Origin: Enterobacteria phage GEC-3S
Direction: 5' to 3' (one strand)
Sequence record: HE978309
Length of the DNA stretch: 64,000 bases
Part shown: positions 57,697-63,112 of the stretch, piece by piece
Position numbering within the stretch: position 1 is the first letter of the stretch
How the letters are laid out: every line of letters starts with the position of its first letter
Made by a program: the position numbers and the translations under genes
The notes under the pieces: model-generated
What the model saw: the letters and a program-made list of their open reading frames with translations, nothing else
Databases searched by the model: none
Told to the model about the DNA's origin: nothing

Positions 57697-58023
57697 TTAG
57701 AAAGAAACAGTTTTCAAGAAATCCAGATTTTCAGTACCGAAAACAGAAAAGTAGTGTTTTCCTTTTTCGGTTTTAGAGAAAGCGATTGTCTTCTCTACAT
57801 GGTGACGGAAGCCCGACAGACGATCACCCAGGTCAAGGCGGCAAGCGTAAGTAGTGCCGTTTTCGAAAGTAACCTCGATTTGAGTTTTGTCATATTCGCT
57901 TTCATAGGCTTTTGCTGCCGCGTCCTGTGCTTTACGCTCGAAGTCTTCGAAGTGGAATACTTCGTTTGCGTTAGCGAATACAGAAGATTCAGAGAAGATA
58001 ACTTTAACAGATACTGGTTTCAT
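57697..58023 (-). CDS. hypothetical protein (108 aa)
   Basis: leader AAGGAGTATCAAAATG. Confidence 0.5.
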   Translation of the reverse strand: MKPVSVKVIFSESSVFANANEVFHFEDFERKAQDAAAKAYESEYDKTQIEVTFENGTTYACRLDLGDRLSGFRHHVEKTIAFSKTEKGKHYFSVFGTENLDFLKTVSF

Positions 58024-58795: not shown

Positions 58796-58981
58796 TCAGA
58801 AATATGCAATATAGTTTGCCAGTCCTACAGAGTCATCATTCGGCATTGCTTTTACTGCCAGTTCAAACCCTGCTTCAACTTTCTGTTTAGCGGATTCTTC
58901 GTTATAACCCCAGATTACCAGAATAGCTACTACGTTTTCTTTGCTTACTGCTTTCAGTGCTTTAGTGATGCGACGTGCCAT
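58796..58981 (-). CDS. hypothetical protein (61 aa)
   Basis: leader GGAGAATCAAATTATG. Confidence 0.45.
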   Translation of the reverse strand: MARRITKALKAVSKENVVAILVIWGYNEESAKQKVEAGFELAVKAMPNDDSVGLANYIAYF

Positions 58982-59027
58982 AATTTGATTCTCCGTTTAA
59001 GAAAGTGTGTTTCGTTTCGATGGGTGT

Positions 59028-59056
59028 ATTATGCTATAGGCCGGATCTGGTGTCAA
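59028..59056 (-). promoter_or_regulatory. early promoter (TTGACA-N17-CATAAT)
   Basis: directly downstream of terminator 59090-59107. Confidence 0.5.
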
Positions 59057-59089
59057 CAACTTTTTTAAAAAATTTTAGGCAATAAAAAA

Positions 59090-59107
59090 GCCACTCCGAA
59101 GAGTGGC
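59090..59107 (-). terminator. intrinsic terminator with UUCG tetraloop
   Basis: GCCACUC-UUCG-GAGUGGC + UUUUUUAUU on minus strand. Confidence 0.65.
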
Positions 59108-59245
59108 TTATAGGGAAGGTAGCGAATCTTCCTTGTCTCCAACCTGCTAGCGGCCTAGCAAGTGAATGCTTTAGCGTACCGGATCGCCCACATACGCTGT
59201 AATAAATGCGGCTAGGTGACGTCCAAATCATTCTAACCGCGCTGT
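59108..59245 (-). ncRNA. candidate small non-coding RNA (about 135 nt) from late-type promoter to intrinsic terminator
   Basis: TATAAATA at 59250-59257 then hairpin-rich sequence ending in the terminator; the only ORF here runs through promoter and terminator. Confidence 0.35.
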
Positions 59246-59249
59246 CTTT

Positions 59250-59257
59250 AGTTCACT
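59250..59257 (-). promoter_or_regulatory. T4 late promoter core TATAAATA (exact consensus)
   Basis: immediately after stop of ORF 59259-59477. Confidence 0.4.
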
Positions 59258-59258
59258 A

Positions 59259-59984: not shown

Positions 59985-60178
59985 AGATCACAGAGCCATC
60001 TTAAAGCACCACATAAAGCGAGCAGAATACTAGGTATAAACGAGATCAAAACAAGTTGGCAAAAATCATCTAAGGTAACACCGGAATAGCTACCTACTGT
60101 AACAACACCGATCATCAGACACAGAAAGAAAACAAATGCAACCAGAAACAAAGTATTGCTAAACAGTTTAGTGATCAT
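59981..60178 (-). CDS. small membrane protein (65 aa)
   Basis: start chosen at ATG 60178 with SD GGGGTG. Confidence 0.4.
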   Translation of the reverse strand: MITKLFSNTLFLVAFVFFLCLMIGVVTVGSYSGVTLDDFCQLVLISFIPSILLALCGALRWLCDL

Positions 60179-60371
60179 TAGACACCCCACGACGATCAAT
60201 TTCAAAAACTTTTTTATCATCAACGAAGCATGTCACAACTGCCTCGTTGACTTCCGCAAATTGTTGTGTTACCCACTTAAGGTCAGAGCGAAACAATGTT
60301 CTATTAATAACAAATGCTTTACCGATCTTATCCTTACCCATAAATTTTGCTTTAACCATATCCAATTCCAT
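60168..60371 (-). CDS. dmd: Dmd-like antitoxin (inhibitor of RnlA/LsoA-type toxins)
   Basis: 67 aa; MEL..V.F.G...K...D..W.TQQFAEVN.A.V..FVDDKKV.E.D.RG pattern matches T4 Dmd as I recall it. Confidence 0.45.
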   Translation of the reverse strand: MELDMVKAKFMGKDKIGKAFVINRTLFRSDLKWVTQQFAEVNEAVVTCFVDDKKVFEIDRRGVSNDH

Positions 60372-60605: not shown

Positions 60606-60980
60606 TTAAGAATATTTTACTTCGTCTACAATGTCTTTCATGACATTGATTTCCATTCCGGTCAGAACACGTTGGAACATGTGCTGCACATACGCTTTCA
60701 GGTATTCATTTGATGGCTTGCTATCGAAAGTCTTTTTAGTGTAGTAGTCATCACCGAAAGCTACTGTAATTATATTTTCGTCGTCGTTCCAAGCGATATA
60801 AGCAAATTTGCCGTTATCCCAGAAGCGAGCACTAATTGCTACTTTTGTTGAATCGAATCCTACTTCGCTGTGAGATTCAAGAACTACTTGCGTGCCAGTT
60901 TCTTTATGAATGTAGTAGCGGGATACTAAGTCAAAGTTACGGGTGTAGTGACATTCGAATTTATCTTTAAACATCATCAT
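60606..60980 (-). CDS. hypothetical protein (124 aa)
   Basis: start at triple ATG 60974-60980 behind GGAGAATCAAA; track extension overlaps promoter. Confidence 0.5.
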   Translation of the reverse strand: MMMFKDKFECHYTRNFDLVSRYYIHKETGTQVVLESHSEVGFDSTKVAISARFWDNGKFAYIAWNDDENIITVAFGDDYYTKKTFDSKPSNEYLKAYVQHMFQRVLTGMEINVMKDIVDEVKYS

Positions 60981-61017
60981 TTTGATTCTCCTAAGTGTGT
61001 TTCGTTTCGATATGTGC

Positions 61018-61046: not shown

Positions 61047-61063
61047 CACCTAAAAACAAAAAA

Positions 61064-61082
61064 CCCCGAAAAATTTTCGGGG
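61064..61082 (-). terminator. intrinsic terminator
   Basis: CCCCGAA-AAUUU-UUCGGGG + UUUUUUGUUUUU on minus strand. Confidence 0.6.
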
Positions 61083-61089
61083 TATAAAA

Positions 61090-61554
61090 TTACAGTTTGG
61101 TCGTCCACTCCAGGTCTAGATCTTCGACATACTCATGAGATCGGACAATCTCTAAATCGAACTCTAGGTCAGTGCCAAATTTACGCGCACCAACATCATA
61201 AGAAAGCGTGATATGCGGTACATATTCAGGATAATCCCACGTCGCACCTAAAGCAGTTCCGATATCGTGTCTGAATTGCATGTAGTCGCTTTCAAATGCC
61301 AACACAAGCGCATTAGTACCGGATTGAGTTTCAAACACTTTCAGATGACACAGAGAGCCTAAAAACTTTTCACCCTCTTCCGGGATAAACGGAACATAGA
61401 CACGAGAATATAAGATAGTGCTATGCAGTTTATCACGAGGAACAGCATTAGGCAGATCGTAGAACTCCTGCAATTTTTCAATGCGGTCTAGTGTATCCTC
61501 AGTGAATTTAACCGCAGCATATGTACCTTTAACGGATTCTCGAAACGGGGTCAT
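61090..61554 (-). CDS. 57B: 2H phosphoesterase (Acb1/57B-like cyclic-nucleotide phosphodiesterase candidate)
   Basis: 154 aa from ATG 61554 with SD GGAGG; two H-x-T/S-x motifs (HSTI, HITL); position downstream of 57A and gene 1 as in T4. Confidence 0.5.
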   Translation of the reverse strand: MTPFRESVKGTYAAVKFTEDTLDRIEKLQEFYDLPNAVPRDKLHSTILYSRVYVPFIPEEGEKFLGSLCHLKVFETQSGTNALVLAFESDYMQFRHDIGTALGATWDYPEYVPHITLSYDVGARKFGTDLEFDLEIVRSHEYVEDLDLEWTTKL

Positions 61555-61556
61555 AA

Positions 61557-61817
61557 TCAAGCCTCCGTGATCAGTTCTACTTCCTCTTTAGCGTCTTCCG
61601 CTGCTTCGTCTTTAGGGAGAAGTGCTTTCACTTCTTCGACAATAGCATCAAGGGAAACAGTGCCGTTTTCGTCTGGCTGAATACCCAGAATGCGTACCAG
61701 TTCCATCAATACACGCTCACGATCTTTCAGTTGGCCTTCTAAGAATGCGGCCTTTTCTTGAGTGTCAAACAGACGTACTTTCAGGACATTAATCATTTGT
61801 TCATGCTGATTGGACAT
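61557..61817 (-). CDS. 57A: gp57A-like coiled-coil protein (tail fibre assembly chaperone candidate)
   Basis: 86 aa from ATG 61817 with SD AGGAGA; acidic C-terminus; positional match. Confidence 0.4.
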   Translation of the reverse strand: MSNQHEQMINVLKVRLFDTQEKAAFLEGQLKDRERVLMELVRILGIQPDENGTVSLDAIVEEVKALLPKDEAAEDAKEEVELITEA

Positions 61818-61849: not shown

Positions 61850-62506
61850 TTAAATGTTCGCGAGAATCGCGCTTTCAAATTCTTCTAATGTGCCATTATT
61901 TATAATGATGGTTTCACCGTCAATAGGCAAAATTCCTTTTTCGGTGGAGTGAGTCGATACAATACCAGTATCACGCTGAATATGCAACACCTTAGCACCC
62001 ATAGCACGCATGAGAGCAATTTCAATAGGCTGACGCACATCAACCACTACAAAATACCCTTCTTCATTTTTGCGCTTCATAAACTCATCCACAAATAGAT
62101 TACACCAATAAAGCGGATTGATCAAGTTAACCATTATATCAGTACCGAGAGTGGTTAACATGAGACGAATAGACCAGACGTTATTATGTTTTTCGCCGAT
62201 CTCATTAACGACCTTGTAAATCTCAGCCAGACGATCACAAGTAAAGGAGCTACCGCCATACTTCGAATCTAGCATAAGCAGACACTGAATAAACCACTTA
62301 TGCGCGGTGTAGGTATCAATACCTAGATCGGCTTCTCTGTCACGCCCTAACCCGTCAAAGTCAAGATAAGTCAGACCTAAGTCTGGTTGACATTCGCATA
62401 AGATTTCTTTGATCGGCGCTGCCAGTTGATAACTGTGTCCATCAATGATTAACGCGGCAGTGTCTTTTCCTACTCGCTTTTTACCACAAAGTGCAATCAA
62501 TTTCAT
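61850..62506 (-). CDS. 1: deoxynucleoside monophosphate kinase
   Basis: 218 aa; P-loop GKKRVGKDT; long blocks matching T4 gp1 (LGTD, DVRQ, AMGA). Confidence 0.85.
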   Translation of the reverse strand: MKLIALCGKKRVGKDTAALIIDGHSYQLAAPIKEILCECQPDLGLTYLDFDGLGRDREADLGIDTYTAHKWFIQCLLMLDSKYGGSSFTCDRLAEIYKVVNEIGEKHNNVWSIRLMLTTLGTDIMVNLINPLYWCNLFVDEFMKRKNEEGYFVVVDVRQPIEIALMRAMGAKVLHIQRDTGIVSTHSTEKGILPIDGETIIINNGTLEEFESAILANI

Positions 62507-62521
62507 TATATAAGCCTCTTA

Positions 62522-63112
62522 TTACTTTCTAAAAGCAGGGTGCATAGCTTTAATACCTTCCACCCGCTGACGATCCGCCGCCTGAATTGCTGGGCGAGGA
62601 ACGATCAGTTGGCCATCACGTTCAATGCTCATTGTTTTAAATGGAAGAATTGCAGTACACACCAGAGATTCATGCATATCATCGGTGTATGTTAACTCAA
62701 GTTCCCCCAATTGTGAACACCAACAACCATAAAAGTTAAAGGTGCAAACAATGTTACGGCGTTCATTGTCCATCATGTGAACTTGAACGGCTTCCGGCAT
62801 TGAATCCTTCCACGCTGTGGAGTTACCGTTATTGTAGTCTACTATAGAAAGCATCCATGTGTAAAGGTTTAGATAACTTTCCAAATGCTCATCGACAATA
62901 AACCGGACTACCAACGGGTCAAACTCCACATGACTAGAAGGATAATCAGCAACCGCCAAACCATATTGGCCAGCAACTTGCTTAGTCGGTGGAATGGTTA
63001 TAGCAGGAAGTGTAACACCTTGAGCATTTAAAGTAAAGCCTTTTGTTAGTTGTCCATCTGGAATATTGATCTGCCAGTTGCTAGGGTTAGCATAGTTAAA
63101 GAGATTAGACAT
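62522..63112 (-). CDS. hypothetical late protein (196 aa; T4 gene 3 position)
   Basis: ATG with SD GAGGAA; late-promoter-like AATAAATA upstream; identity not established. Confidence 0.4.
   Translation of the reverse strand: MSNLFNYANPSNWQINIPDGQLTKGFTLNAQGVTLPAITIPPTKQVAGQYGLAVADYPSSHVEFDPLVVRFIVDEHLESYLNLYTWMLSIVDYNNGNSTAWKDSMPEAVQVHMMDNERRNIVCTFNFYGCWCSQLGELELTYTDDMHESLVCTAILPFKTMSIERDGQLIVPRPAIQAADRQRVEGIKAMHPAFRK

Follow-up and report, generated by a model that had tools for sequence, protein, structure and literature searches.

The minus-strand gene at 61090..61554 of the DNA analyzed here, a window of 64,000 nt from Enterobacteria phage GEC-3S (sequence record HE978309), is, with high confidence, a Krischvirus (RB49-type) ortholog of gp57B from phage T4, the nuclease Acb1 that counters CBASS. 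The acb1 gene of RB49-type phages is an already known gene, and its protein is identical to the RB49 GenBank entry. Where does the window itself belong? Its last 4 kb share 98.5% nucleotide identity with Escherichia phage RB49 and are matched at 95-99% by 57 phage records. Its first 25 kb align with phages Phi1 and Whisky, starting at base 1 of both. From the RB49 match and the base-1 alignment, the window can be placed at the start of a genome of the genus Krischvirus (family Straboviridae), of which it covers the first 64 kb.

The open reading frame that the first-pass annotation proposed at this position is real, and its location on the minus strand can now be added. It encodes 154 amino acids, beginning with an ATG at 61554-61552 and ending with a TAA at 61092-61090. 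The program-made list of reading frames opens it two codons earlier, taking the TTG at 61560 as its first codon; the annotation of RB49 has the ATG as the start, and this ATG is preceded, 7 nt on its 5' side, by the Shine-Dalgarno sequence GGAGG. Read directly from the minus strand, this element occupies 61562..61566 and overlaps the final codons of 57A, a gene that stops with the TGA at 61559-61557. At the other end of the gene, a terminator scan identified an intrinsic-terminator-like hairpin, ACCCCGAAAATTTTTCGGGGT followed by TTTTTTGTTTT (61053..61083, minus strand), which is GC-rich, has 9 bp, and begins 7 nt past the acb1 stop codon. Phage G2494 has the same element, and its annotation calls it a terminator. 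The 3-1-57A-57B transcription unit ends with this hairpin.

What identifies the product as Acb1? The first-pass annotation had pointed to two short motifs, HSTI and HITL, and both are present, at residues 44-47 and 114-117, respectively, with no H-x-T/S beyond these two. At least two H-x-T/S also occur in 6 of 103 segments of 154 amino acids taken from long open reading frames in the window (about 6%), and in 1362 of 10000 shuffles of the acb1 product (14%). The pair by itself is not beyond chance and is weak evidence. The identification therefore rests on matches to profiles and structures.

The profile match is to the Pfam family PF23474, “Anti-CBASS protein Acb1.” With a cut-off of 27, the product reaches 174.4 bits, and the match runs from residue 9 to residue 152 and from position 1 to position 143 of the 144-position profile. 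The sole match in a sequence search of the PDB was the Acb1 of Erwinia phage FBB1 (7T26/7T27; E = 1.8e-43). Alignment to T4 57B, which had been suggested as a check, bears out the relationship: by BLASTP, 72 of 154 residues are identical to T4 gp57B (NP_049750.1) in a match that runs end to end (47%; E = 3e-47). In a three-way alignment, the identity is 47.7% with T4 Acb1 and 52.8% with FBB1 Acb1. All 64 homologues drawn from a collection of 5.8 billion proteins carry PF23474, and some of the relatives bear the UniRef name “Anti-CBASS protein Acb1.” No NCBIfam model matches the product.

The residues that matter for catalysis and binding were defined in T4 Acb1 by Hobbs et al. (2022; PMC9117128). 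The catalytic tetrad is H44/T46/H113/T115, the base-stacking residues are Y12, W74, F107, and W147, and E141 contacts adenine N6, a contact that underlies the need for at least one adenosine in the substrate. In the window protein, the tetrad aligns as H44, T46, H114, and T116, and the stacking residues as Y12, F74, Y108, and W150. The adenine-contacting glutamate becomes E144, in a column whose conservation across the family alignment is 90% or more. All nine catalytic or substrate-binding residues are conserved, two of them aromatic-for-aromatic. Those two, F74 and Y108, are the same residues as in FBB1 Acb1, which was crystallized with 3'3'-cGAMP hydrolyzed in its active site (PMC9117128). 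Among 62 homologues, the invariant columns (numbered as in the window protein) are H44, T46, S50, H114, T116, L117, and Y119, and those at least 90% conserved include G10, T11, Y12, E141, Y142, and E144. The three-way alignment also reveals a 2-residue insertion in the window protein, in the strand pair preceding the lid. Given this insertion and an identity of about 47-53% to the tested enzymes, the substrate range could differ in detail.

An AlphaFold2 model of the product, built on the 62-sequence alignment, has a mean pLDDT of 91.6 and a pTM of 0.84. Low confidence is confined to the first 5 and last 4 residues, the last 4 having pLDDT values below 50; the low-confidence C-terminal part of the model would fit the mobile lid that Acb1 is described as having (PMC9117128). 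When this predicted model was compared with the PDB by Foldseek, 7T26 ranked first (target-normalized TM of 0.97, RMSD of 0.9 Å, 138 columns) and 7T27 second (RMSD of 2.0 Å). The predicted fold is that of a compact 2H phosphoesterase with a central beta-sheet pocket and, probably, a flexible C-terminal lid. The next match is the phosphodiesterase of Burkholderia phage BCSR5 (9Q2Y/9Q2G; TM of ~0.7, 16-18% identity), for which a literature search found no paper. LigT and CPDase structures are matched with TM values of 0.45-0.63, RMSDs of 4.5-7.8 Å, and 10-17% identity, a likeness at the level of the superfamily. The earlier proposal of a 2H phosphoesterase homologous to T4 57B/Acb1 thus stands, on the Pfam score, the FBB1 match, and a model 0.9 Å from 7T26. 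Low similarity together with a different active-site geometry had been named as one ground for abandoning it. Neither was seen, with 47% identity to T4, nine key residues kept, and a predicted structure that fits at 0.9 Å.

Could the gene nevertheless encode a LigT-like 2'-5' RNA ligase, or a 2',3'-cyclic phosphodiesterase acting in RNA/tRNA repair, and not a nuclease of cyclic oligonucleotides? The 2H superfamily is common to both, LigT structures are among the distant fold matches, and PHROG 755 and many GenBank records carry the label “RNA ligase,” although that label is older than the 2022 characterization. Weak Pfam matches to 2_5_RNA_ligase2 (PF13563) and LigT_PEase (PF02834) point the same way, but their scores of 19.4 and 14.1 bits fall short of the respective cut-offs of 27 and 23.3, whereas Acb1 reaches 174 bits. 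With the predicted model, LigT fits at a TM of about 0.5 and an RMSD of 6-7 Å with 11-12% identity, compared with 0.9 Å for Acb1. Moreover, the product retains the Acb1-specific stacking residues together with the glutamate that reads adenine and the tryptophan of the lid. Membership in the LigT/2'-5' RNA ligase families was rejected on the subthreshold scores and the poor structural fit, and an RNA repair enzyme is hardly credible here.

A different question is whether a true Acb1 enzyme of the Krischvirus clade might have a shifted substrate range or main target, for example, type III CRISPR cA3, 3'2'-cGAMP, or 2'3'-c-di-AMP in place of the canonical 3'3' signals of CBASS. Both cA3 and 2'3'-c-di-AMP are already in vitro substrates of T4 Acb1 (PMC13577387; PMC12657230), identity to the characterized enzymes is only 47-53%, two residues are inserted before the lid, and neither the window nor the remainder of RB49 yielded a T4-type Acb2. 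Nonetheless, every ligand contact defined by crystallography is conserved, both substitutions are those of the FBB1 enzyme crystallized with 3'3'-cGAMP, and all nine of the additional, diverse homologues assayed by Hobbs et al. cleaved both 3'3'-cGAMP and cAAA (PMC9117128), so that a shift of this kind is very improbable. The divergence of ~50%, the insertion next to the lid, and the lack of a detected T4-type Acb2 also motivate the related conjecture of an altered substrate spectrum in the Krischvirus clade, such as efficient 3'2'-cGAMP cleavage or the sparing of Panoptes decoys. This is unlikely; if true, it would change which CBASS/Panoptes systems restrict RB49-type phages.

An inactive relic, also considered as a candidate, conflicts with the intact state of the catalytic tetrad and with the almost entirely synonymous divergence. 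How has the Acb1 gene fared within the genus? The acb1 genes of RB49 and the window, one gene in sister isolates, differ by 6 nt, all synonymous. Between G2494 and the window, 12 codons differ by one nucleotide each; 11 of these changes are synonymous, and the other gives D129N. In PHB13 and Skers, DNA identity is 97.2-97.6% (97.2% in PHB13) and protein identity is 100%. The gene is intact over its full length in 57 of 57 Krischvirus records. Together with the nearly all-synonymous differences, this indicates purifying selection, as judged from sequence comparison, on what is probably a functional protein.

For an Acb1 of this kind, the most likely function would be to cleave, without metal, cyclic di- and trinucleotides that contain adenosine and thereby to block CBASS effectors. 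Judged from its T4 and FBB1 homologues, the enzyme would hold a cyclic di- or trinucleotide signal (3'3'-cGAMP, cUA, cAAA, or cAAG) in a U-shaped pocket. The bases of the signal would be stacked by Y12, F74, Y108, and W150, with E144 reading the adenine N6, and a closing C-terminal lid would cover the ligand. The H44-x-T46/H114-x-T116 tetrad would then help the adenosine 2'-OH to attack the 3'-5' bond, with no metal required. Cleavage 3' of the adenosine, via a 2',3'-cyclic phosphate intermediate, would leave a linear signal. With the signal linearized, CBASS effectors would stay off, and the infected cell would be spared suicide.

By the definition of the Acb1 family used here, the activity should be metal independent, should extend to 3'3'-cGAMP, cUA, cAAA, and cAAG, cut 3' of adenosine, and should leave cGG and cA4 uncleaved. 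A T4 Δacb1 mutant has a >300-fold defect under CBASS, and protection in vivo is known for T4 only (PMC9117128). As for the phages closest to the window, vB_EcoM-G2494 (Escherichia phage RB49) appears in the 57-phage lysate panel of Hobbs et al. in their Supplementary Table 1 (PMC9117128), and its Acb1 is one residue, D129N, away from the window protein. A search of the literature found no paper joining RB49 or Krischvirus with Acb1, and the Acb4 paper does not mention a result for an RB49-type Acb1 or for G2494.

Destroying a signal can also carry a price. The Acb1 activity of T4-like phages sets off type I and type II Panoptes guards, which fire once decoy cyclic nucleotides are depleted, and phages escape Panoptes through inactivation of acb1 (PMC12657230; PMC13577387). 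The same trade-off between CBASS and Panoptes would be expected for an RB49-type phage. Does such a phage have a second countermeasure? T4 has the Acb2 sponge (vs.4), whereas no homologue was detected in the window or in RB49 64000-163999; the best tblastn hit with T4 Vs.4 had an E value of 1.7, in a single-query test that is weak for a small, divergent family. Nor was a second Acb1-like copy found. Since no Acb2 was detected, Acb1 may carry the whole load against cyclic-oligonucleotide signaling, and RB49-type phages may rely on it alone.

The gene sits in a leftward block with a familiar order. The block opens with gene 3, for the tail completion/sheath stabilizer protein (62522..63112, minus strand; PHROG 45, 4.9e-43; Pfam gp19-like, 31.4 bits), followed by gene 1, for the dNMP kinase (61850..62506, minus strand; Pfam DNMK, 229.8 bits). 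Directly upstream of acb1 is the homologue of the tail-fiber assembly chaperone 57A (61557..61817, minus strand), 86 amino acids long from its ATG (PHROG 1002, 3.2e-26; Pfam GP57, 27.4 bits). All three assignments agree with the annotation of RB49. The position downstream of 57A and gene 1, which the first-pass annotation had likened to the 57B slot of T4, is indeed that slot, the order 3-1-57A-57B being shared with T4. This synteny is supportive of membership in Acb1, not defining. A T4-type late-promoter motif, TATAAATA, lies at 61904-61897 (minus strand), inside the 3' end of gene 1 and ~80 nt upstream of the 57A ATG. The motif occurs 3 times in the window compared with 5.65 expected by chance, and because its count is below expectation, it is not evidence by itself. 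It could drive late transcription of 57A-57B, and it is only a hint.

Past acb1, the order is terminator, sigma-70-like promoter match, 125-amino-acid gene, 52-amino-acid open reading frame, and Dmd homologue. The promoter match is strong, TTGACA-17-AATAAT (61046-61018, minus strand; 11 of 12 positions), and stands before the 125-amino-acid gene. In T4, the gene downstream of 57B is ipI, an anti-GmrSD factor, whereas the window has in that slot an unrelated protein of 125 amino acids (60609-60983, minus strand; phrog_15253, 1.9e-87), which shows a weak, subthreshold Pfam match to T4 Gp30.7 and has no NCBIfam match. The Dmd antitoxin homologue (60168-60371, minus strand; PF17587, 57 bits) is annotated dmd in RB49 and lies ~0.7 kb, or three genes, downstream of acb1; the dmd of T4 is located elsewhere. 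A lineage-specific neighborhood of anti-defense genes may lie in the stretch past 57B.

Some further features of this end of the window can be described briefly. Between 56000 and 64000, no tRNA and no Rfam family were found. At 58982-59258 there is a 277-nt stretch that lacks an annotated gene in RB49. On its minus strand, ~140 nt of predicted structure end in a terminator-like hairpin, AAGCCACUCUUCGGAGUGGCUUUUUUAUU, which is followed by a TTGACA promoter-like site. The stretch has no tRNA or Rfam match and a fold z-score of only -1.9, and may represent either a small RNA or a 3' UTR. T4 carries stable RNAs in this general region. Two small open reading frames of the same leftward block also match domain families: the product of 57697-58023 (minus strand) matches LPD25 (“large polyvalent protein associated domain 25”) at 53.8 bits, and that of 58796-58981 (minus strand) matches DUF7421 at 136 bits.

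Of what use is the identification? The name Acb1 is used for the gene in none of the 57 Krischvirus GenBank records. The labels they use are “hypothetical protein,” “RNA ligase,” “putative RNA 2...,” and “gp57B conserved hypothetical protein,” and the PHROG 755 label “RNA ligase” is outdated. The sole practical gain is one of annotation, in that Krischvirus records mislabel acb1, and no new biology is implied. Read as Acb1, the gene suggests that RB49-type coliphages should be able to break down CBASS signals that contain adenosine and, on the reasoning of recent Panoptes studies, should be open to attack by guards that sense such depletion. Both points are relevant to the prediction of host range and to the choice of therapeutic phages.

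Overall, how does the window protein compare with its named relatives? The most distant are E. coli LigT, the Deinococcus CPDase, and the BCSR5 phosphodiesterase, which have the superfamily fold and two HxT/S motifs in common with it and, as a group, 11-18% identity, with a TM of 0.5-0.7 and an RMSD of 3-7 Å against the model. T4 Acb1, the founding member, has been characterized both biochemically and genetically. It occupies the same position after 57A and has the same HxT/HxT, E, and W; it has W74/F107 where the window protein has F74/Y108. FBB1 Acb1, whose structures are 7T26 (apo) and 7T27 (with 3'3'-cGAMP), comes from a phage of a different host genus, is 53% identical, and falls in the same length class. 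Its tetrad, stacking aromatics (F74/Y108 included), glutamate, and lid tryptophan are identical to those of the window protein, which differs from it by two added residues in the strand pair ahead of the C-terminal lid and by an N-terminal tail that is longer. The nearest relative is gp57B of RB49 (NP_891697.1), with a protein that is 100% identical, a gene with 98.7% nucleotide identity, and the same neighbors.
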